From Spirochaetia bacterium (lineage in GTDB: Bacteria > Spirochaetota > Spirochaetia > DSM-2461): DNA of 64,000 bases. The notes beneath the pieces were generated by a model that saw only the letters and a list, made by a program, of their open reading frames with translations, was not told the DNA's origin and searched no databases. Shown here in pieces: positions 46,712 through 59,000 of the stretch. The stretch is from NCBI GenBank assembly GCA_963666985.2, contig CAXXIA010000002.1, forward strand, positions 64,001 to 128,000, given 5' to 3'. Each line of letters begins with the position of its first letter. Within the stretch, counting starts at the first letter, position 1. A program made the translations under genes and the position numbers.

Positions 46712-46760
46712 TTGACATTTCAGTTCTATTTTACTACATATGAATATATGTTCATATGTA
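46712..46760 (+). promoter_or_regulatory. Promoter -35 plus ArsR/SmtB-type operator
   Basis: TTGACA at 46712-46717; inverted repeat TACATATGAA-TATATG-TTCATATGTA (46735-46760) with the TGAA-N6-TTCA core typical of SmtB/CzrA sites. Confidence 0.85.
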
Positions 46761-47127
46761 CACGGGTAAAACGATGACGGAACAAAACTGGTGCCGAATC
46801 AATTCGGAAACGGCCGATAAACTTCGAGAAGAGATGCCGATTGAAGAAGAAGTTCAAGATTTGGCCTCTTTATTCAAGGTTTTCGGCGATCCGACGCGAA
46901 TCCGCATCCTGAACATACTTCAGCATAAACCGCTCTGCGTTCACGATCTTTCCATACTGCTGGAGATGCAGCAGACCGCCGTTTCTCATCAGTTGAAAGT
47001 GCTGAGGCACAACCGGCTGGTTCGATTTTATAGGGAAGGAAAAATGGCGATCTACTCACTAAACGACGAGCATATTGAACGGCTGATGTCCATCGGCATC
47101 GAACATATTAAGGAAATCTATTCATGA
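46756..47127 (+). CDS. ArsR/SmtB metal-sensing repressor
   Basis: FKVFGDPTRIRIL, LCVHDL, AVSHQL, alpha5 site DEH...HIKE; alternative start at 46774. Confidence 0.93.
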   Translation: MYTGKTMTEQNWCRINSETADKLREEMPIEEEVQDLASLFKVFGDPTRIRILNILQHKPLCVHDLSILLEMQQTAVSHQLKVLRHNRLVRFYREGKMAIYSLNDEHIERLMSIGIEHIKEIYS

Positions 47128-48407
47128 CGACATTTCTGACCGACCTCGGTCTTTCAACATTGAACCTCTTTGTAGAAATAGCGAAATATCTGATTTTAGG
47201 ACTCTCGGTCGCGGGGATTATGAGTGTTCTGATCAGCAAAGCCTTTGTGGCGCGCCATATCGGCAAAGATAATTTCGCATCCGTTTTAAAAGCCTCGCTG
47301 CTGGGAGTTCCCCTCCCCCTCTGTTCCTGCGGAGTGGTGCCCACCGCCGCTTATTTGCGCCGTTCCGGTGCTTCCCGCCCGGCGCTCATGGGGTTTCTCA
47401 TTTCCACGCCTCAAACAGGAATGGACAGCATTTTCGCCACATACGGCATGCTCGGACCTTTATTCGCGATTTTTCGTCCGCTTGCCGCCCTCTTAACGGG
47501 ACTTCTCGGCGGTGCGATATCGATGCTGGCCGGAGGTAAAGAATCCGAGGAAGGGAAACTCCGGGAAGAAAGCACGGAGGATCAGGAAACCCGAGGATTG
47601 CCGGAGAAAGTTCGCGCTGCCGTCACCTATGCATTCGGAGAAGCTGTGGACGACATCTCGGTGCATTTTCTGGTAGGACTCTTCATCGCCGGTCTCATTA
47701 CCGTTCTCATTCCGGACGATTTTTTCGCCGGACGCATGATCGGAAGCGGTCTGCCCGCCATGCTGCTGATGGTGGCTATCGGCATTCCGATGTATGTCTG
47801 CTCCACATCCAGCATTCCAATCGCCGTGGCTTTGATTGCCAAAGGAATCAGTCCCGGGGCGGCCTATGTTTTTCTGGTGGCCGGTCCTGCGACGAACGCG
47901 GCATCTCTTGCGATTTTGACGAAGGTGCTTGGAAAACGGCAGACGATTCTCTACGTGCTGAGCATTATCATCGGCAGTCTCATGTTCGGTCCGCTGATGG
48001 ATTTCATCATTCGCATCACGGGCGGAATGCCGCCTGTAATGAGTGCGCATATGCATTCGGCCGGATTCACATGGTTCGACTATACTCTGGCGGGCTTTCT
48101 GACCCTCCTGATTCTGATTTCATTAGCAAGGAGATTTATACACATGAACAAAACGAGAACCGACCGCGATGCTTCGCACCGGAATGCGGATGATTCCAGA
48201 GAGTTCACCATAGACGGGATGTCATGTCATCACTGCGCGGCCAATGTGGAAAGCGCGCTGAAAGAGATTCCGGGAATCAAGACCGTTCAGGTAGATCTTG
48301 AGGCCAAACGCGCCGTTCTTACCGGGGATGCGGAAGATGCGCTGATTCATCAGGCGATTCACAATGCCGGATATACGGTCGTAGAACACCCATCTTCGGG
48401 AAAATAG
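47124..48407 (+). CDS. DUF318/SO_0444-type metal permease with C-terminal HMA domain
   Basis: PLPLCSCGVVP, FLISTPQTG, PMYVCST, GPATN; C-terminal GMSCHHC. Confidence 0.88.
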   Translation: MTTFLTDLGLSTLNLFVEIAKYLILGLSVAGIMSVLISKAFVARHIGKDNFASVLKASLLGVPLPLCSCGVVPTAAYLRRSGASRPALMGFLISTPQTGMDSIFATYGMLGPLFAIFRPLAALLTGLLGGAISMLAGGKESEEGKLREESTEDQETRGLPEKVRAAVTYAFGEAVDDISVHFLVGLFIAGLITVLIPDDFFAGRMIGSGLPAMLLMVAIGIPMYVCSTSSIPIAVALIAKGISPGAAYVFLVAGPATNAASLAILTKVLGKRQTILYVLSIIIGSLMFGPLMDFIIRITGGMPPVMSAHMHSAGFTWFDYTLAGFLTLLILISLARRFIHMNKTRTDRDASHRNADDSREFTIDGMSCHHCAANVESALKEIPGIKTVQVDLEAKRAVLTGDAEDALIHQAIHNAGYTVVEHPSSGK

Positions 48408-48476: not shown

Positions 48477-49817
48477 TTACCGTCCCTGCCGTACTCCGCG
48501 GTAGGCCGCGAAATCGATCCAATCGATTGCAAGCGGAGAATCGGGCATTTCCCCTTTCCTGTATAAGAAACACTTGCCCGACTCCAGAACCTTATCAAGT
48601 ACATTCCAGGCAAGTTCCGTTTCCTGGGCACCGACATACAGGGTTCGATCACCGGCCAGAGCGTCGGTGAGAAGTCTTTGATAGGCGTCTTCCACCACCG
48701 GAGGGCCGAAAGCATCGGAAAGACTGAAATCCAAACGGCTCTGGGCGATGTCCCGATCGGTTCCCGGAACCTTCACCGTATAATCGATAATAATTCCCGT
48801 CGTGGGCTGAATCTGAAAAATAATCCGATTCGGGGATAAGCCGCCGGAAGCGTTATACAGCAGCTTGGGAAGATTTTTAAAGCGGATGCCGATTTCCGTT
48901 CCCTTTTCTCCCATGGCCTTCCCGGTTCTCACATAAATAGGAACGCCTTCCCACCGGAAATTCCGGATGCGCATTTCCATTTCCACAAAGGTCTCGGTTT
49001 TTGAATCCGGTGCCACATTGGGTTCCTTTCGGTAGCCTTCGTACTGTCCCCGGGCGAATCGGACAACTTCCAGTGCTTTGAGAACACTTGTCTTTTGAAT
49101 GCGGATTTCTTCCGGATCCAGACTTAAAGGGGCTTCCATGGTCATCAGCGCCAGCATCTGGATTAAATGATTCTGAACCATGTCCCTGATAACACCGGCC
49201 TCGTCGAAATACTCGCCCCGGCTCTCTACGCCCAGTACTTCGGATGCGTTAATCTGTATCGATTCGATATAACTGGAATTCCACGTCGGATAGAACAAAC
49301 TGTTCGCGAACCGAAAAACCAAGATGTTCTGTACCGCTTCCTTGGCCAGATAATGGTCGATGCGGAAAATCTTTTCTTCGGGGAAATTCTCGGCGAGGCG
49401 CCTGTTGAGTTCCAGGGCGCTCCGGGCGTCGTATCCGAAGGGCTTCTCCACGATTATTCGCGTTTCATCGCCGAAGCCTTCCTCCCGGAGAGCCGCGGCC
49501 GTGTCGGCATACACCTTCGGGGGAAGAGAGAAGAACACGATAATCGTCTTGAACTTCCCTAACGTATCCAGATAAGTACGCAGCCCTGTCATCCCGGTGT
49601 GATAATGAAGCAGCGGCGCGATCGAATCCGAAGCGCGGACATGCTTGCGAAATTCTTCGTCCGTGAATTCCCGGCGGCCGGATCCGACGATGAAACAGCC
49701 TTTCCCGATGTGACCGTTCTGTTTAAGGGAATCAAGCGCCGGAATCAGTTTACGGTGAGCCAGATCTCCCGAAGCGCCGAGGATGACAATGGCCGAATCC
49801 GTAACCGATGCTTTCAT
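48477..49817 (-). CDS. zwf: Glucose-6-phosphate 1-dehydrogenase
   Basis: GASGDLA, VEKPFG, RIDHYLAKE, RDMVQNH, WEGVP.YVRTGK; AGGGAG RBS before the ATG at 49817. Confidence 0.94.
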   Translation of the reverse strand: MKASVTDSAIVILGASGDLAHRKLIPALDSLKQNGHIGKGCFIVGSGRREFTDEEFRKHVRASDSIAPLLHYHTGMTGLRTYLDTLGKFKTIIVFFSLPPKVYADTAAALREEGFGDETRIIVEKPFGYDARSALELNRRLAENFPEEKIFRIDHYLAKEAVQNILVFRFANSLFYPTWNSSYIESIQINASEVLGVESRGEYFDEAGVIRDMVQNHLIQMLALMTMEAPLSLDPEEIRIQKTSVLKALEVVRFARGQYEGYRKEPNVAPDSKTETFVEMEMRIRNFRWEGVPIYVRTGKAMGEKGTEIGIRFKNLPKLLYNASGGLSPNRIIFQIQPTTGIIIDYTVKVPGTDRDIAQSRLDFSLSDAFGPPVVEDAYQRLLTDALAGDRTLYVGAQETELAWNVLDKVLESGKCFLYRKGEMPDSPLAIDWIDFAAYRGVRQGR

Positions 49818-50100
49818 GAACACTCCCTAAGGCAGCACGGAATCCGGCGGCCCGACCGATAAGGTGAATTATAAGATCAGATTTTTTCCTGTTTGTGACA
49901 AGTGCCGTCTAAATTAAGTGTGTTTACCATAACCGGCCGCCGCCCGATTTCAAGGTGCAATTCCCGCAATATTCCCTATCGCCGGGTACCGCGGAGTCTG
50001 TCTGCATCAGGCATATGCCGAACCGGCGATGGGACCGCCGGCTCTTTTACCGTAAAAAAGGCACCCTGCCTTACCGGTTCACTCAGGCGGACAATGAAAT

Positions 50101-51759: not shown

Positions 51760-52740
51760 TCAGCCGGCCAGAGCCTTGATTTCCCGATACTTGGAAAGGT
51801 CGCTGTAGAGCTCGCCTTTGTAGGGATTGCGGCCGGTTTTCTTGATTTTGATAATCATGTAAATCAGAACCGCCACGTTGACGGCCAGTGCGGCGATGCC
51901 CCAGGCCCAATAGATTCCGCTTTTGTAGGTGGATGTTACCGCCCAGCGTCCGGTGTCCTGGAAGGAGGGAAAGGTTTGAGCGAACATGCACCAGAGAGCC
52001 AGGGTTTGTGCGCGGTGCTGGAGCCAGGCGCCTTTTCCGATGGTAAACGCGCAGAGCGTGGGAGCCAGAAGCAGGGCGAATCCGCAGTACCATGAATGGG
52101 TGGGCAGGCAGTTGTAGGTGTAGGTGAAGTTCCACAAATCGTAGGCGATGATCCAGAACCAGAGCATGTCGGGCCAGAGCATGTCGCGGCTTGTATCCTT
52201 GGCGGTTTTCCGGCGGATAACAATGCCGAACCATCCGGTAATGGTGATGATATTGATGATGCCGGCGATGGCGTTCAGGTAGTTCCAGGGTCCGCCGAGA
52301 ACAAAAACGCCGTCATCGGCGGTGATGCCGCCTCCGGAATACTGCATTCCAACCTGGAAATCCCGCACACAGGCTTCCAGAATGTTGATGGCCAAAATCA
52401 GGGGCGGAAAAACCAGGGCCCATTTTTTCTCGTACAGGTGCCATTCGTTGCCGCCGACTTTGTCTTTTCCTTTCAGGTGGCGGATCAGCCAGAAACCGAT
52501 ACATCCGGCGGTGGAGGAATACACTTTGGCCAGGTGAAACCAGTCGGTGTAGGTGGTTTCACTGAATATGGTTATCCACAGAACCGTCAGGATAATCGGC
52601 AGAATAACGAAGGCGAAGAATCCGGCGTATTTGAAGCGCCGGGTTATTTCGTTGGCGATGAATAGTACGGCAAAGACCAAAAGCCACACGCCCCAAACGG
52701 ATGCGCCGGTTGCTCCTGCGGCATAATTGAATGTGAACAT
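51760..52740 (-). CDS. Polytopic membrane protein resembling the DUF5692 family
   Basis: About 8 TM segments; WFHLAKVYS, NILEA..RD, DMLWPDM.WFWIIAYDLWNF.Y.YNC, WLQHRA.TL. Family recognised from memory. Confidence 0.75.
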   Translation of the reverse strand: MFTFNYAAGATGASVWGVWLLVFAVLFIANEITRRFKYAGFFAFVILPIILTVLWITIFSETTYTDWFHLAKVYSSTAGCIGFWLIRHLKGKDKVGGNEWHLYEKKWALVFPPLILAINILEACVRDFQVGMQYSGGGITADDGVFVLGGPWNYLNAIAGIINIITITGWFGIVIRRKTAKDTSRDMLWPDMLWFWIIAYDLWNFTYTYNCLPTHSWYCGFALLLAPTLCAFTIGKGAWLQHRAQTLALWCMFAQTFPSFQDTGRWAVTSTYKSGIYWAWGIAALAVNVAVLIYMIIKIKKTGRNPYKGELYSDLSKYREIKALAG

Positions 52741-52967
52741 AGCGTTACCACTCTCTGGAAAAAGATTATCAACCTCAGAACATTAAGAACTTGGGTTGGT
52801 TTTTTTCTTTTTGAACTTTTTCTTTAAAAATTTGGATGGCTCGCGATCGGCGAATCCATGGCAAACCAAGGGCATTGTAATCCATCTTCACTTTTTTACA
52901 ATTGGAACACTGTTAAATTCGTTATTTTTTTATTGTTTCTTTGAAGGATTAATCGAAAACAGTTTTT

Positions 52968-53555
52968 TTAGGAGGTTTCCCCGCAGAAGGAATCCAGAAT
53001 AAGGCTTAAGTCTTCCCGGAGTTTTTCATTAAGATTGTATCGGCCGCTAAGAAGGCACCATTCGAAGAGAACACCCCGCCCGCTTCTGATCAGCCGGTCG
53101 ATCAAAGCATCGATATCGGTTCCGGTCCGCAAATCCGACCGCCCGGCGTTCATCACTTTTCTCAACTGAACATAAATGGGCCGATCCGTTTGAATGGCAT
53201 ACTTTTGAGAGCTGGCGAGCAGATAAAGGTAGCTTTGGGTAACCACTTCCCATCCAAGGTCTTCCAATATTCCGCCGGCTTCTTCAAAAAGATAAAGAAC
53301 ATTCGCTTTGAGGTCTTCTCCGTAATGATGATGGAGTATTTTTTCCTCCCAGAGCAAATCCAGCTGCTGGTGGATTGTGTTGATGATTTCTTCCTTGGAT
53401 TTAAAGTAGTAGTAAAAACTGCCTATGGAAATTGAAGCGGCGCCGCAAATATCCCGAACCGACACGGCGGCAAAGCCGTATTTTTGAAACAGGGACATTG
53501 CGCTGAGGGTGATTTTCAATTTGGTGGCAATAGATTTTTTTTTCTTTTCATTCAT
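52968..53555 (-). CDS. TetR/AcrR family regulator
   Basis: LFQKYGFAAVSVRDICGAASISIGSFYYYFKSKEEI; likely ATG at 53555. Confidence 0.9.
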   Translation of the reverse strand: MNEKKKKSIATKLKITLSAMSLFQKYGFAAVSVRDICGAASISIGSFYYYFKSKEEIINTIHQQLDLLWEEKILHHHYGEDLKANVLYLFEEAGGILEDLGWEVVTQSYLYLLASSQKYAIQTDRPIYVQLRKVMNAGRSDLRTGTDIDALIDRLIRSGRGVLFEWCLLSGRYNLNEKLREDLSLILDSFCGETS

Positions 53556-53647
53556 GGATTTGTGAAGATTCAGTAAAAATACACCAAAACTCTTCAGAAC
53601 GAACAGATTCCCGGTCATCTTAAGAACAAATAATAGATAATTAATTA

Positions 53648-53695
53648 TTGAAAAGTCGCCGTTTCCATGAAATACTGATATTCGAACACTGTTCG
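53648..53695 (+). promoter_or_regulatory. Putative hypB-operon promoter and palindromic operator
   Basis: TTGAAA (53648), 17-nt spacer, TG-n-AATACT (53671); palindrome CGAACA-C-TGTTCG at 53683-53695. The same core GAACACTGTT occurs at 52905-52914. Confidence 0.6.
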
Positions 53696-53709
53696 GTTTG
53701 GAGCGTCCA

Positions 53710-54381
53710 ATGAACAAATTTAAGGTAATTGAAATTAAGAAAAGCGTTTATGAAAGCAATGACAAGAAGGCTGAGAAACTCCGGGCGGAGCTGAAATCCG
53801 ACGGAATTTTCCTCTTGAATCTCATGTCTTCACCCGGATCGGGGAAAACCACCACCGTGATGGGAACAATTGATGCTCTCAAAGAACACTTTGCGATTGC
53901 GGTGCTGGAAGCCGATTTGGATTCCGACGTGGACGCGGCCACCGTTTCCGCTTCGGGGGTGAAAGTAATTCAGCTCCACACCGGCGGAATGTGCCATCTG
54001 GATGCCGGCATGACCGAGCAGGGAATTAATGCGATCGGTTTGGAGGGAATCGATTTGGCGATTCTGGAAAACGTCGGGAATCTGATTTGCCCGGCCGAAT
54101 TTGATACCGGCGCTTCCAAAAGCGCCATGATTCTCAGTGTGCCCGAAGGCGATGATAAGCCTCTGAAATATCCGAACATGTTTACCAAAGTAGATGCCCT
54201 GATTGTAAACAAAATGGATGCCGCCGAGTTTTTTGAGTTTGATCTTGAAGCCGTGAAAAATCGGGTTGAAAAATTGAATCCGGGGGTAAAGATTTTCCCC
54301 ATGTCGGCGAAAACCGGCGAGGGAATGAAAGAATGGGCCGACTGGCTGGCTTCGGAAGTTATCAAATGGAAGGAGAACTGA
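53710..54381 (+). CDS. hypB: Nickel-insertion GTPase HypB
   Basis: LMSSPGSGKTT, TGGMCHLDA, ENVGNLICPAEF, SVPEGDDKPLKYP, NKMD, SAKTGEG. Confidence 0.95.
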   Translation: MNKFKVIEIKKSVYESNDKKAEKLRAELKSDGIFLLNLMSSPGSGKTTTVMGTIDALKEHFAIAVLEADLDSDVDAATVSASGVKVIQLHTGGMCHLDAGMTEQGINAIGLEGIDLAILENVGNLICPAEFDTGASKSAMILSVPEGDDKPLKYPNMFTKVDALIVNKMDAAEFFEFDLEAVKNRVEKLNPGVKIFPMSAKTGEGMKEWADWLASEVIKWKEN

Positions 54382-54384
54382 CAA

Positions 54385-57150
54385 ATGGATGTCTTTGCCG
54401 ATCTGAAAGCCGACACAACCGATCAATCAAAAATGTGGTTCCCGGAAGGGTATGAATGCAAGTACAACGAGAAGATTCTGGCTCTGGCGAATATTATCGG
54501 AAACCGCAAAAGCGCCAAGTCATCCTATACATGGGAAGATCCGGAATATGTCATCCTCGAAGCCGGTATCGATGATGAAATGGCGGATGTGGCTTTGGGG
54601 CTTAAACTGTATGAAAAACAGACCGCGGAGGATATCTCCAAAATCGTAAACAAGCCCGTGGATCACTGCCATGAGCAGCTGATGAAGCTGGCCGTGTACG
54701 GTGCCTGTTTTGTGAATACCGTTGACGGCAAGGATGTGTTCTGGGCGGAAACCTGGATTCCCGGCACCATGGAAGTAATTGTAAACAATCTTGATGTCGT
54801 GAAGAAATATCCGATTGTCGGTTATGCCATGGAAGCCTACGGCCGGGTTCGCGGACCCAAGAGTTCCGGTGCATTCCGTCCGGGGATGGGCCTGATGCGG
54901 GTGATTCCCATTGAGTCGGCCATCGACGGGAACAGCCATAGAGCATCCTACGAAGAGGTTTCCAAATATCTCAATGATAACGATGTTTTTACTGTAACCG
55001 ACTGTTCCTGCCGAACCGACCGTGAAGCCATGGGCGAAGGGTGCGGCCATTTAAAGGAAGATATGTGTATCCAGATGGGACACGCCGCCGAATACTACAT
55101 TAAAACCGGCCGCGGACGGCAGATTACCCGGGAAGAAGCCTTTGAAATTATTAAAAAAGCCGAAGAAAACGGGCTGATGCACCAGATTCCGAATCTGGAC
55201 GGCAGCGGAAAAACCCATGCCATCTGTAACTGCTGCGGCTGCAGCTGCCTATCGCTCCGAACGGCGGAAATGTTTAAAAACACCGACATGGTACGCTCCA
55301 ACTACGTGGCCCGGGTGGATACCTCGCAATGCGTGGCCTGCGGTCAGTGCGTGGAATACTGCCCTGTAAACGCTTTAAGATTGGGCCAAAAACTCTGTTC
55401 TTCCAAAGAAGTTGTTACGGATATCACCACCAAAGATACTCCCCGCGATCTGAAATGGACCGAGGAATACTGGAACACCGAGTACAGAACCAACCGGGAA
55501 AATGTGGTGGAGAGTGGAACCTCCCCCTGTAAAACCGCATGCCCGGCTCATATCGGGGTTCAGGGCTACATCAAGTTGGCCGCCCAGGGTAAATATATGG
55601 AAGCTCTGGAACTGATTCGCCATGAGAACCCGCTTCCGGCCGTTTGCGGCCGTATCTGCAATCGGCGCTGCGAGGATGCCTGCACCCGCGGAAGCATCGA
55701 TGATCCGATAGCCATTGATGAAATCAAGAAGTTCATCGCCGAAATCGAACTGGATAAATCCAAACGTTTTGTTCCGAGAATCCGTCATGATTACAGCGAC
55801 AAGAAGGTGGCCATTATCGGTTCGGGCCCGGCCGGATTATCCTGTGCCTACTATCTGGCTCTGGATGGTTATACCGTTACCGTTTTTGAAAAAGAGAGCC
55901 GCCTCGGCGGTATGCTGACCCTCGGACTTCCGAATTTCCGTTTGGAAAAAGATGTGGTGGAAGCGGAAATCGACATGATCCGCGACATGGGCGTGGAGTT
56001 TAAAACCGGAGTTGAAATCGGTAAGGATATTTCCATCGCCGAACTTCGCGATCAGGGATATAACGCCTTTTATGTGGCCATCGGTGCTCAGGGCGGAAGA
56101 ATGATTGGAGTTCCCGGAGAAGACGCCGAAGGCGTGATGAGCGGAATCGAATTCCTCCGTATCATTAATCAGGATCAAACTTACAAACTTTCGGGCAACA
56201 CGGTTGTGATCGGCGGCGGAAACGTGGCCATCGATGTTTCCCGGACGGCGGTTCGGGCCGGAGATGCAAAGGTGAGCCAGTTCTGTCTGGAATCCCGTGA
56301 GCAGATGCCGGCACTGGAAGAAGAAATTGTCGAGGCCGAAGAAGAAGGCATCACCATCAGTACCAGCTGGGGCCCGAAACAGATTCTTGTTGAAAACGGC
56401 AAAGTTAAAGGTATCGAGTTCAAAAAATGTACCGCCGTATTTGATGCGGAAGGAAAATTCAATCCCCAGTATGATGAAAATGACTGCATGAGCGTGGAAG
56501 CCGACAACATTCTTCTTTCCGTCGGACAGTCCATCGTATGGGGCGATCTCCTGAACGATTCCAAAGTGGAACTTCGCGGTAACGGCGGTATCATTGCCGA
56601 TGATTTTACCTTCCAGACGGCGGAGAAAGATATTTTTGCCGGAGGGGATGTCTATTCCGGTCCCCGTTTTGCCATCGATGCGATTGCGGCCGGCAAGCAG
56701 GCGGCCGTTTCCATTCACCGTTTTGTTCAGCCGGGACAGAGTTTGGTTCTCGGACGCGACCGCCGGGTGTACAAAGAGCTGGATAAAGAGGCCGCCGTTA
56801 TTGAGAATTATGATAATACTCCGCGCCAGCGTCCTTTGAATGTAACGAGCGAAGAAAAACAGTCCCGAAGTTTCAACGATCTCCGGGGTGTGTTTACGGA
56901 AGATCAGCTGAAGAAAGAAACGGAACGCTGTTTGGGATGCGGGGCTACCATCGTGGATTCTTATATGTGCGTGGGATGCGGTCAGTGTACAACCAAGTGT
57001 CAATTCGATGCCATTTCCCTTGAGCGTGTATACGACGGCGAGGGTGTTGAATACTTTGACTTAAAGCCGAATGTTGTAAAACAGATGGTAAAACGGCAGG
57101 CCAAGATTGCCATCCGGAAGGTGAAAGATTCATTTAAAGGTGATAAATAG
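54385..57150 (+). CDS. Multi-Fe-S, FAD/NAD(P)H-dependent oxidoreductase (Cys-rich N-domain, ferredoxin motifs, GltD/PreT-like module), 921 aa
   Basis: DCSCR, CGH...C, ICNCCGCSC; CVACGQCVEYCP; CKTACP, CGRICNRRCEDAC; GSGPAG; GGGNVAID; FAGGD; RCLGC, CVGCGQCTTKC. Confidence 0.9.
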   Translation: MDVFADLKADTTDQSKMWFPEGYECKYNEKILALANIIGNRKSAKSSYTWEDPEYVILEAGIDDEMADVALGLKLYEKQTAEDISKIVNKPVDHCHEQLMKLAVYGACFVNTVDGKDVFWAETWIPGTMEVIVNNLDVVKKYPIVGYAMEAYGRVRGPKSSGAFRPGMGLMRVIPIESAIDGNSHRASYEEVSKYLNDNDVFTVTDCSCRTDREAMGEGCGHLKEDMCIQMGHAAEYYIKTGRGRQITREEAFEIIKKAEENGLMHQIPNLDGSGKTHAICNCCGCSCLSLRTAEMFKNTDMVRSNYVARVDTSQCVACGQCVEYCPVNALRLGQKLCSSKEVVTDITTKDTPRDLKWTEEYWNTEYRTNRENVVESGTSPCKTACPAHIGVQGYIKLAAQGKYMEALELIRHENPLPAVCGRICNRRCEDACTRGSIDDPIAIDEIKKFIAEIELDKSKRFVPRIRHDYSDKKVAIIGSGPAGLSCAYYLALDGYTVTVFEKESRLGGMLTLGLPNFRLEKDVVEAEIDMIRDMGVEFKTGVEIGKDISIAELRDQGYNAFYVAIGAQGGRMIGVPGEDAEGVMSGIEFLRIINQDQTYKLSGNTVVIGGGNVAIDVSRTAVRAGDAKVSQFCLESREQMPALEEEIVEAEEEGITISTSWGPKQILVENGKVKGIEFKKCTAVFDAEGKFNPQYDENDCMSVEADNILLSVGQSIVWGDLLNDSKVELRGNGGIIADDFTFQTAEKDIFAGGDVYSGPRFAIDAIAAGKQAAVSIHRFVQPGQSLVLGRDRRVYKELDKEAAVIENYDNTPRQRPLNVTSEEKQSRSFNDLRGVFTEDQLKKETERCLGCGATIVDSYMCVGCGQCTTKCQFDAISLERVYDGEGVEYFDLKPNVVKQMVKRQAKIAIRKVKDSFKGDK

Positions 57151-57155
57151 CTTCG

Positions 57156-57497
57156 ATGCATGAACTGGGTATCGTGATGCATATCGCAGAAACGGTTCTG
57201 GAATTGATGAAGGAAGAAGAGCTGACCGAGGTACGGAAAATCGTGCTTCAGGTTGGCGAACTTTCCGCCGTTATTCCCCGCTATCTGATGGAATGCTATC
57301 CGGCGGCCGTTGATGGAACGGCGCTGGAAAAAACCGAGCTGGAGATAGAGATTCTTCCCGGTAACGGTAAATGCCGCGCTTGCGGGGAAGTGTATAATCT
57401 TCTCAAAAATAAGCGAATCTGCCCCAAGTGTGGGGCGGATCATTTTGAATTCTTAAGTGGGGATGAATTCAATTTGAAAGAGATTCTCGCCTGTTGA
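57156..57497 (+). CDS. hypA: Nickel metallochaperone HypA
   Basis: N-terminal MHE, VGELS, CRAC...CPKC, GDEF; 113 aa. Confidence 0.95.
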   Translation: MHELGIVMHIAETVLELMKEEELTEVRKIVLQVGELSAVIPRYLMECYPAAVDGTALEKTELEIEILPGNGKCRACGEVYNLLKNKRICPKCGADHFEFLSGDEFNLKEILAC

Positions 57498-57714: not shown

Positions 57715-58344
57715 TTATACGCCCGATGCCGGTTTGACGGCCAATTCTCCGGCGGCGGCGAACCATCCGGGAGAATCTTCAACAGTGATGCCGCCAAATC
57801 CGTATTCCGCCAGTTTGGACCGGAAGTATTCCACCGGCGGCAGGATGTCTTCGGAGACTTCCCGGCCTCTCCCGATATGGTACTCATTCAATTCCCGCCG
57901 GCTTAATGAATGCGTGATGACTAAGGTTCCGCCGACCTTCAGATAAGAAGCCGCGTTTCTGAAGACGGGATCGAACCGATCAAAATGAGGAAATGTATTG
58001 AAAATGATGACCTTGTCGGCTGCAATTTGACGGTTTATCGGTTCCAGAAACGACTTATGGATGATGTCCAGGGAGGGAAACTTCCTTTTCAGGATTTTTA
58101 CCATTTCGGCGGAATTCTCCACCGCATAAATATGCTTCACCCCGGCGTTCCGATAATACGGTATGGCAATCCCGGTTCCCGAACCGACGTCCATCACCGT
58201 ATCGTTTACCCCAATATGGAACTCCGTGATTATCCGCTCAAGAGCCGCATGATCCTCTCGGCGAATTCGAGTATCCCAATCCGGAGCATTCCGGCAGAAG
58301 AATGTGTTTCGGTGTAACATAAACGGCTGCAGATTAAGGTTCAT
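57715..58344 (-). CDS. Class I SAM-dependent methyltransferase
   Basis: VMDVGSGTG, AVENSAEM, FPHF, LKVGGTLVITH. The longer 340-aa ORF overlaps the upstream gene, so the start is placed at ATG 58344. Confidence 0.82.
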   Translation of the reverse strand: MNLNLQPFMLHRNTFFCRNAPDWDTRIRREDHAALERIITEFHIGVNDTVMDVGSGTGIAIPYYRNAGVKHIYAVENSAEMVKILKRKFPSLDIIHKSFLEPINRQIAADKVIIFNTFPHFDRFDPVFRNAASYLKVGGTLVITHSLSRRELNEYHIGRGREVSEDILPPVEYFRSKLAEYGFGGITVEDSPGWFAAAGELAVKPASGV

Positions 58345-58535
58345 GAGAACATACCCTTCAAGAGGATCTCGATACAACCCCTCCCGGCCGATCGAGAAAA
58401 CAATCTTGGCGAATCTCGCCCCTCTTTCGCCGAAACCAGCATAAACCCGAACTGCTCCAGGAACCCGCTCCCGTCCCATCGCCGGGTGCTGCGGCATGTG
58501 TTTGCACCCGGCATATTCCGAATCGGCTTCGGGGA

Positions 58536-59000
58536 TCAGCCCGCGGAAATCGCCCCTGTTTTCGTATACACAAAACTTGTCAGGATTCCCAGGATCAGCA
58601 TCGCGATAACAGAATTGATCAGCTGGACCATGATGAGCGGGACCGGATAGCGAAAGAGCATGAATTGATTGAAGGCCTCCGGAATTGTTTTGATAAGAAT
58701 GACGGCCAAAGCGAAGAGCACGCCCTTGGCAAGCCAATTTCCCGGCAGCAGGGAAAATGCAACAACGAAAAGAAAGATAAAGAGCGCCACAAAGTACACC
58801 CCGAGAGCCGCGTTGAGTCCGATATAAACCCCGAGACCTCCGAAATCGCTCGTCTCTTTCATCACCGCCGGGACATTCAGCTTCTTGAAAATCCCGGATA
58901 CAAGGGGATTTACGTACAGAAGATTACCGACAATCATGTTGGCGACAAGAATCACGGGACTCCAGGCGAACACCTTCCAGAGAACGATCGAATGATTCAT
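58536..59000 (-). CDS. Hypothetical 4-TM membrane protein
   Basis: AAGGAGG RBS; four hydrophobic segments. Confidence 0.75.
   Translation of the reverse strand: MNHSIVLWKVFAWSPVILVANMIVGNLLYVNPLVSGIFKKLNVPAVMKETSDFGGLGVYIGLNAALGVYFVALFIFLFVVAFSLLPGNWLAKGVLFALAVILIKTIPEAFNQFMLFRYPVPLIMVQLINSVIAMLILGILTSFVYTKTGAISAG

Follow-up and report, generated by a model that had tools for sequence, protein, structure and literature searches.

A HypB- and HypA-flanked IsrA-family flavoprotein in a Spirochaetia bacterium: a candidate nickel enzyme for the reduction of conjugated dienes

The window analyzed here, that is, the whole stretch of 64,000 nucleotides from position 64,001 to 128,000 of contig CAXXIA010000002.1 (Spirochaetia bacterium, assembly GCA_963666985.2), carries a compact operon in which the gene of a 921-amino acid Fe-S flavoprotein is enclosed by the genes of the metallochaperones HypB and HypA. 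With confidence that is evenly balanced, it is read as an inducible operon whose Ni-Fe-S flavoenzyme, matured by HypAB, would hydrogenate conjugated dienes, most likely those of fatty acids, such as conjugated linoleic or linolenic acid. The direct basis of this reading is gene order, residues, family membership, and co-occurrence. The locus comprises the following features.

51760-52740, minus strand: DUF5692 membrane protein, 326 amino acids (PF18948 passed, 395 bits)
52874-52914, minus strand: promoter-like site (52901-52874) and partial copy of the putative TetR operator, GAACACTGTT (52905-52914), upstream of the DUF5692 gene
52968-53555, minus strand: TetR-family repressor, 195 amino acids, divergent from hypB
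53648-53695, plus strand: promoter-like site (TTGAAA at 53648, AATACT to 53676), then the palindrome CGAACA-N-TGTTCG (53683-53695), a putative TetR operator
53710-54381, plus strand: HypB GTPase metallochaperone, 223 amino acids, ATG after GGAG
54385-57150, plus strand: IsrA-family (clade 9) Fe-S flavoprotein, 921 amino acids
57156-57497, plus strand: HypA metallochaperone, 113 amino acids, with the MHE nickel motif and two CxxC zinc motifs
57715-58737, minus strand: class I S-adenosylmethionine methyltransferase (conserved part 57739-58311), convergent on hypA

The open reading frame coordinates confirm that hypB, the flavoprotein gene, and hypA are separated by only 3 and 5 nucleotides, and the TetR gene and the DUF5692 gene beyond it lie where they had been predicted, in agreement with the family scans.

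Judged by its domains, its cysteine spacing, and the presence of 67-76%-identical relatives in the published tree, the flavoprotein belongs to IsrA clade 9, a published family. The relative EOT23527.1, which is 76% identical to the window enzyme, is an exact match to locus L019, and PWJ48606.1 (67%) is L077; WP_099470165.1 and PKM39727.1 share clusters with L017 and L055. These four and IsrA itself (VUZ27132.1) are all found in the available part of supplementary file 2 of PMC10134865, an unlabelled file that was taken as the extended clade 9 tree. IsrA is a 901-amino acid oxidoreductase and the putative isoprene reductase of Acetobacterium wieringae ISORED-2 (Kronen et al. 2023, PMC10134865; this and the other papers and the preprint are cited according to the parts of their texts available). 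It is encoded together with two hypA genes and one hypB gene in a genome without NiFe hydrogenase, it alone among the redox proteins is induced when isoprene is reduced, and its Cys6 site has been proposed as the nickel site. Among the neighbours of 988 IsrA homologues, HypA was found for 73%, HypB for 56%, DUF5692 for 40%, and TetR for 21% (PMC10134865). In a Pelotomaculum culture, isoprene induces hypA/hypB several hundred-fold, and the same 2026 preprint puts the biochemical characterisation of the system as future work (10.64898/2026.02.25.708027). The claim of the original prediction that the system is new has to be withdrawn, as the family, its hypA, hypB, TetR, and DUF5692 neighbours, and the nickel-client inference were all published in 2023 (PMC10134865). 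The family, to whose thousands of members this locus adds one more, had thus been put forward as a new nickel enzyme before; of 8000 candidate proteins that were scored, 6884 gave a match to the N-terminal domain.

The preserved linkage, the co-occurrence in genomes lacking HypD, and the separate branch of the chaperones make it very probable that the 921-amino acid flavoprotein is the client of HypA and HypB, in line with the original prediction. Within the 80 closest loci, to which all neighbour counts out of 80 refer, hypB is present in 77 and hypA in 71, and the order hypB-enzyme-hypA is kept in 68. The nine loci without hypA all break off within the enzyme gene or where it stops, and all 71 that extend past it have hypA; a linkage of this kind is far beyond chance. 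Of 13 further places examined, 11 have both chaperone genes adjacent. Co-occurrence was scored in two samples, namely, 61 genomes related to the window genome (sample 1; a strong enzyme match being one with E below 1e-90) and 201 Clostridia genomes (sample 2; one was left unscored in the HypA-copy and HypA/HypD counts), where kin are not independent and the counts are patterns, not statistics. The enzyme is encoded in 15 of the 61 genomes of sample 1; HypA is present in all 15, adjoining an enzyme copy in 14, and HypD in one. Conversely, 14 of the 15 HypA-positive, HypD-negative genomes have the enzyme, the exception being a 73% complete genome whose HypA groups with hydrogenase-type copies. 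The 12 enzyme genomes of sample 2 all have HypA, the three with HypD each carrying two HypA genes, and the enzyme is found in 9 of the 14 genomes with HypA and without HypD. Over both samples, 27 of 27 enzyme genomes have HypA and only 4 have HypD. This genome-level co-occurrence strengthens the published nickel-client reading.

Both chaperones are of recognizable type. HypB passes the TIGR00073 model (242 bits; cut-off 121) and reaches only 36.5 bits with the UreG model; it is of the short type without N-terminal metal site. HypA passes Pfam PF01155 (108 bits; cut-off 29) and falls under the TIGR00100 cut-off (70.6 versus 88.1). The nickel ligands, predicted to be kept, are invariant in all aligned relatives from the 80 closest loci, namely, C95, H96, and C127 of HypB and H2 and E3 of HypA, and so are both CxxC motifs of HypA. 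The whole assembly contains one copy of each gene. In the HypA tree, 31 enzyme-linked rows are split from 7 others with support 99/96, and in a quick HypB tree, 30 enzyme-linked rows stand apart from 8 others (Shimodaira-Hasegawa-like approximate likelihood ratio test, 93). The separate clade looked for is thus seen relative to few hydrogenase-type copies, the comparison side having 7-8 rows from a single class, of which two or three come from contigs that carry no HypD, and this tempers the case. A complex prediction for the N-terminal domain with HypA scored 0.00 and gave no answer. As a separate observation, a divergent HypA-like gene (E 1e-15 to 1e-18) was met in five Clostridia genomes with neither HypD nor the clade 9 enzyme (G097:C17, G133:C4, G166:C65, G222:C25, and G249:C100), where it possibly serves another client.

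The metal delivered is likely to be nickel. In the window genome (4.86 Mb in 3 contigs, 93% complete), no match was found to the NiFe large subunit, HypD, or urease alpha. The predicted lack of NiFe large subunit, urease, and carbon monoxide dehydrogenase genes in the 64 kb can, therefore, be extended to the assembly, and of the hypCDEF genes, likewise said to be missing, hypD is absent from it, hypC, hypE, and hypF not having been searched separately. Several systems were considered and rejected. A NiFe-hydrogenase maturation operon would be at odds with the lack of a large subunit and of HypD and with the position of HypA and HypB apart from hydrogenase-type copies; a urease accessory system has no urease structural gene to serve, and HypB is not UreG-type; the only match to the Prismane/carbon monoxide dehydrogenase family in the assembly is a hydroxylamine reductase. 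For a HypAB-dependent ureohydrolase operon of the MefH or GdmH type, no ureohydrolase gene lies beside the window's hypAB. The other nickel users of the genome, two LarA-family matches, come with their own LarC and LarE, which removes the Lar system as a client. In five relatives, metal-import genes are joined to the operon; a DsbD_2-family membrane gene with an HxxxGPDH motif directly precedes hypB in L102, L103, L108, and L119, and a CbiM/CbiQ/ATP-binding cassette set follows the operon in L105. The DsbD_2-family gene is presumably UreH/RcnA-like. HypAB are proven nickel chaperones of a non-hydrogenase enzyme (PMC11399263).

Two other views of the chaperones were weighed. That HypA and HypB serve the flavoprotein while bringing zinc, cobalt, or iron, or aid an unusual all-iron cluster, so that no nickel enzyme would be formed, is judged unlikely. 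A Cys6 site can hold all-iron clusters, as in P-type and double-cubane clusters (PMC10134865), ferredoxin-like proteins of about 360 amino acids share the cysteine pattern and were not seen by Kronen et al. to be associated with HypA/B (PMC10134865), the neighbouring CbiM importers are annotated as cobalt/nickel, not strictly nickel, and no CbiM and no UreH-like gene was found in the window genome, other nickel importers not having been searched. Against this stand the invariance of every canonical nickel ligand of the two chaperones, the fact that proven HypAB clients are nickel enzymes (PMC11399263 and established knowledge), and the handling of nickel by the window genome, as seen from LarC and LarE. 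Far less probable still, to the point of being negligible, is maturation of the nearby amidohydrolase HydA or another hydrolase after the manner of metformin and guanidine hydrolases. HypAB do activate dinickel ureohydrolases (PMC11399263), and HydA, named in the original prediction as an alternative client, is encoded 2.2 kb from hypB; however, it scores above the TIGR02033 cut-off as an ordinary dihydropyrimidinase, the genome encodes two paralogues of it at other places, it occurs in 0 of the 80 related loci, and the only ureohydrolase of the genome, an agmatinase, belongs to a polyamine cluster on another contig. Downstream of the dihydropyrimidinase gene lies an ordinary glucose-6-phosphate dehydrogenase gene (48477-49823, minus strand).

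The flavoprotein of the preferred nickel-client reading consists of an N-terminal metal domain and a flavin part. Residues about 380-790 form a GltD/NfnB-like FAD/NAD(P)H module, which matches solved relatives of the Nfn and GltD types at E 1e-47 to 1e-105 and stays under the cut-offs of the GltD/NfnB-type models gltD and gltA (283 versus 483 and 280 versus 472 bits). In this fold, a Tyr-Arg-Arg motif binds the NADPH phosphate; in the flavoprotein, this motif of the best solved relatives reads Cys-Leu-Glu and, therefore, points to NADH rather than NADPH as the electron donor. Sixteen cysteines, enough for four [4Fe-4S] clusters, are kept in all aligned close relatives, and would probably be paired as 316/319/322/326 with 862/865/868/872 and as 382/386/421/425/429/433 with 849/852. 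The Cys6/His site is made up of C207, C209, C228, H266, C281, C283, and C288, and all six cysteines and H266 are invariant in 36 diverse homologues. For the first 300 residues, no Pfam family match was found. The model of this N-domain has a mean predicted local distance difference test (pLDDT) score of 89.7, with residues about 60-130 being winged-helix-like, and a fold search with the whole domain, the Cys6 part not being queried alone, returned only winged-helix proteins over the first part (Z 7.2). A large set of proteins of about 360 amino acids (P0177, P0183, P0187, and many more) combines the cysteine-rich N-domain with ferredoxin motifs and is devoid of the flavin module. That the window enzyme is a C=C reductase is considered probable; that its substrate is a fatty acid is an evenly weighted proposition.

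The case for a fatty-acid substrate comes from the neighbours of related copies. Homologues of PAI, the isomerase of polyunsaturated fatty acids from P. acnes (PDB 2B9W; PMC13003489), occur in 3 of 61 genomes of sample 1, as an FAD protein whose best solved match along its full length is 2B9W, and in 4 of 200 Clostridia genomes, and all 7 are found beside the enzyme. The Clostridia homologues comprise three intact proteins (E 2e-190, 4e-135, and 4e-40 to 2B9W) and one 3' remnant. PAI converts linoleate to a conjugated diene (PMC13365329); since IsrA is tied to conjugated-diene reduction, isomerase and reductase would form a coherent pathway. AMP-binding ligase genes are present at the PAI loci L155 and L156, together with an acyl-acyl carrier protein thioesterase at L156. 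An oleate hydratase gene directly precedes hypB in genome G026, and an oleate hydratase is also reported beside the homologue in two Acetobacterium species (PMC10134865). On a FastTree tree, a minimum of five changes is required to account for the eight lipid-linked copies; they bracket the window copy, to which the PAI-linked enzymes are 56-62% identical. Text counts in the available part of the tree file, uncontrolled for database sampling, which lessens their weight, gave Butyrivibrio 159 (possibly including run-on Pseudobutyrivibrio labels), Pseudobutyrivibrio 77, Roseburia 57, Paeniclostridium 33, Sharpea 8, Paraclostridium 5, and Bifidobacterium and Faecalibacterium 0 each; genera rich in the file are reported to make trans-11 intermediates or vaccenic acid (PMC7339423, PMC4478896, PMC13365329). 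The linkage of a PAI isomerase to the clade 9 enzyme is added here and suggests a concrete substrate; neither it nor any other link between this family and fatty acids was found in the literature searched, which leaves out most subscription journals. The available text of Kronen et al. makes no mention of linoleate or isomerase (PMC10134865).

Two further observations were made at the PAI loci. In four genomes from two phyla (L102:14867-15844, L105:12279-13280, L108:3842-4852, and L151:12182-13210), the PAI-like gene is directly preceded by an IS481-like helix-turn-helix gene, which scores under the family cut-off and is either a mobile unit or a domesticated regulator. In L155 (3511-6218) and L153 (10724-13431), a phytoene-desaturase-like flavoprotein and an NAD-binding/2Fe-2S reductase are encoded between the PAI gene and the enzyme, which suggests a longer fatty-acid saturation pathway. 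A metagenome scan with a PAI-like protein yielded mostly short Rossmann matches and one long match with no enzyme nearby.

The DUF5692 gene is present in 48 of the 80 related loci. The protein is modelled as a helical bundle (pLDDT 88.8), for which Foldseek gave no match at E 0.001 and the ESM Atlas no usable match; a fold search returned a middling arrangement of seven helices like that of G protein-coupled receptors (Z 8.6, root mean square deviation 5.1, 196 aligned), which is uninformative for a helical bundle. The intramembrane polar residues K72, N119, E122, D127, N156, Y200, W203, N204, and R243 are kept, and distant members (9 rows) retain polar pocket residues (Lys, Asn, Glu, Asp, Tyr, Arg) and no His or Cys. 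A conserved polar pocket without His or Cys fits an enzyme or a binding pocket better than a redox carrier. Of the two roles first envisaged, that of a redox partner is, therefore, not favoured, and a substrate-handling enzyme or carrier is the better candidate. The enzyme is present in 13 of 17 genomes of sample 1 with a strong DUF5692 match (adjacent in 7) and in 5 of 7 such genomes of sample 2 (adjacent in 3). Among the 12 enzyme genomes of sample 2, five have DUF5692, four PAI, none both, and three neither, as if one replaced the other, a split expected in 7% of cases by chance (hand calculation); in sample 1, all three PAI loci also hold DUF5692. The gene is also found in genomes without the enzyme, and stand-alone DUF5692 loci show no recurrent lipid neighbour. 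An insoluble linoleate isomerase is known from Butyrivibrio (PMC13365329), and no gene for a linoleate isomerase was found there in a genome study of 2018, as far as its available part goes (PMC6249431). The identification of DUF5692 with this Butyrivibrio-type isomerase is a lead, not a result, and, on present evidence, rather doubtful. A distant subfamily of 260-277 amino acids (about 25% identity) was noted at L101:6865-7695, L112:4422-5249, and L100:1741-2520; one of its members directly precedes a second enzyme copy without hyp genes beside it.

Regarding regulation, CGAACA-N-TGTTCG at 53683-53695 is the only perfect copy in the genome and is situated just downstream of the promoter-like site before hypB. 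The site recurs before hypB in L098, L099, L100, and L104, where TetR orthologues (42-56%) are divergent from hypB. The partial copy upstream of DUF5692, a pattern picked after sight and equalled in count by 2 of 100 shuffles, suggests that the hypB operon and DUF5692 may form one TetR regulon; the promoter and terminator scan taken as a whole was at chance level. The proposed control by TetR is thus backed by a conserved palindromic putative operator, and it is not general, as 64 of 80 close relatives use a GntR/FadR-type regulator. Alongside the latter regulator, a different palindrome is found in 30 of the 80 loci, and in two relatives the GntR/FadR-type regulator stays with DUF5692, away from the enzyme. 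There are 20 exact GAACACTGTT matches in the window genome, 8 of them within 90 kb on one strand (G000:C2:1798648-1886502), where the cluster may be a repeated element. A sequencing-run search listed no RNA holder.

From these elements, the following scenario is proposed. A lipophilic ligand would free TetR from the palindrome that overlaps the start site of hypB and, probably, from the partial site before DUF5692 as well. To judge from ligands and linkage, HypB would then hydrolyse GTP and hand nickel to HypA, which would load it into the N-terminal Cys6/His266 site. According to the domains, NADH would reduce FAD in the GltD/NfnB-like module, and electrons would pass via four [4Fe-4S] clusters to the Ni-Fe-S site, where the diene would be converted to the monoene. 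In the weakest step, DUF5692, possibly acting as a linoleate isomerase, would produce the diene within the membrane or present it there.

Several observations weigh against this scenario. PAI has no match in the window genome, and no gene there passes the cut-off for oleate hydratase; neither is found in any of the 80 closest loci, and the 15-row subclade of the window copy has no lipid-enzyme neighbour. The 7 PAI cases include the 3' remnant and three pairs of close kin, and oleate hydratase is adjacent in only 1 of 5 (sample 1) and 0 of 18 (sample 2) genomes with a strong match to it. Four enzyme copies, in L101, L115, L152, and L161, have no hypB next to them or no hyp gene at all in the part of the locus seen; these are second copies in their genomes, and the lack of a CbiM or UreH-like importer in the window genome counts here as well. 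The literature searched holds no published biochemistry for any clade 9 member. Conjugated linoleic acid (CLA) reductases purified from Butyrivibrio (1982, 2007) reportedly have about 53-60 kDa, not about 100 kDa.

The closest rival retains the Ni-Fe-S diene reductase and has the window subclade reduce a non-fatty-acid diene or polyene, such as isoprene, terpenes like myrcene, carotenoid or steroid dienes, or plant phenolics, and DUF5692 would serve in uptake or sensing. It is a serious minority option. Isoprene and butadiene are the substrates of the one member for which a substrate link exists, and terpenes have been proposed for homologues (PMC10134865); besides the lack of PAI and hydratase genes just described, the phytoene-desaturase-like gene in L153 and L155 and sugar or major facilitator superfamily genes near DUF5692 in the enzyme-free stretches L109, L111, and L112 would suit it. 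The bracketing of the window copy by PAI-linked copies speaks for fatty acids, however, and Acetobacterium strains with 47-49% homologues do not reduce isoprene (PMC10134865). A general redox hub, that is, an Nfn-like or electron-bifurcating NAD(P)H:ferredoxin enzyme with DUF5692 as membrane redox partner, is very improbable. The best solved relatives are indeed Nfn-type and GltD-type modules, and bifurcation is discussed by Kronen et al. (PMC10134865), but ligand-type repression and the patchy spread (strong match in 2 of 14 same-genus genomes) fit a substrate-specific trait, and DUF5692, apart from having no His or Cys conserved in distant members, is missing from 7 of 12 Clostridia enzyme genomes. 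Bifurcation could occur alongside diene reduction.

The reading as a diene reductase operon can be carried one step further, to a speculative minority proposal: the operon family might be the gene set of anaerobic linoleate biohydrogenation, with DUF5692 as the Butyrivibrio-type membrane linoleate isomerase and the clade 9 flavoprotein as CLA reductase acting via a new Ni-Fe-S cluster in the Cys6/His site. PAI or oleate hydratase would then replace DUF5692 in some lineages, and the reduction of isoprene would have branched off from this chemistry. A 2015 paper, in its available part, could not find the biohydrogenation oxidoreductase in databases. Two questions are at stake, namely, whether a new class of nickel redox site exists, for which the compact hypB-enzyme-hypA unit would be easy to express, and which genes underlie rumen and gut linoleate biohydrogenation, the process from which meat, milk, and the intestine derive their conjugated linoleic and vaccenic acids. 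Through the isomerase linkage, DUF5692 becomes a candidate for the isomerase gene not found in Butyrivibrio genomes.

As for the surroundings, the methyltransferase gene also lies 3' of hypA in L098 (11713-12342), L099 (12112-12720), L100 (16463-17071), L106 (7086-7703), and L158 (10812-11567); with 6 of 80 loci, it is a recurrent, non-core neighbour of the operon. An ArsR regulator and an ArsP-type permease fused to a heavy-metal-associated domain (46756-48407, plus strand) are encoded 5 kb from hypB; the permease is a possible metal transporter and was not seen as a recurrent neighbour. A second hypB-enzyme-hypA unit follows the first in tandem in L035 (12154-15927), its enzyme being 54% identical. 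On the 267-kb plasmid record OY725877.1, enzyme and DUF5692 are encoded within 4 kb (194182-198321), and, therefore, the unit can be plasmid-borne.

Comparing the locus with known systems, it shares with Butyrivibrio linoleate biohydrogenation (linoleate isomerase, EC 5.2.1.5, then CLA reductase, the latter compared by description only) the conversion of conjugated diene to monoene, the producer genera, and the isomerase or hydratase genes beside the enzyme's relatives. With the dinickel ureohydrolases MefH, DmgH, and GdmH (PMC11399263), it would have in common that hypA and hypB without hypCDEF load nickel into an adjacent enzyme, often with a nickel importer alongside; those are hydrolases with His/Asp dimetal sites, whereas here a redox client with a Cys6/His site would be served. 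The flavin module resembles that of GltD, NfnB, and the dihydropyrimidine dehydrogenase PreT, to which the window enzyme adds a 340-residue N-terminal metal domain and a C-terminal ferredoxin motif. The isr operon proper of isoprene-reducing strains includes an accessory ferredoxin with N-domain and a second hypA, whereas one HypA and one N-domain match occur in the whole window genome; in comparison with IsrA, moreover, the window has the order hypB-enzyme-hypA and DUF5692, and the C-terminal offset suggests that IsrA's 26-residue insert is absent. Like IsrA, compared by its published positions and not by full-length alignment, the window enzyme has about 900 amino acids and the clade 9 domain order (unannotated N-terminal 270-300 residues, Fer4, DPD domain II, FAD/NAD(P) domain, and C-terminal Fer4), two CxC motifs 74 residues apart (C207/209 and C281/283; C180/182 and C254/256 in IsrA), and the first ferredoxin motif at equal offset; hypA, hypB, TetR, and DUF5692 are neighbours here as among the clade 9 homologues, and the host of IsrA likewise has no NiFe hydrogenase.

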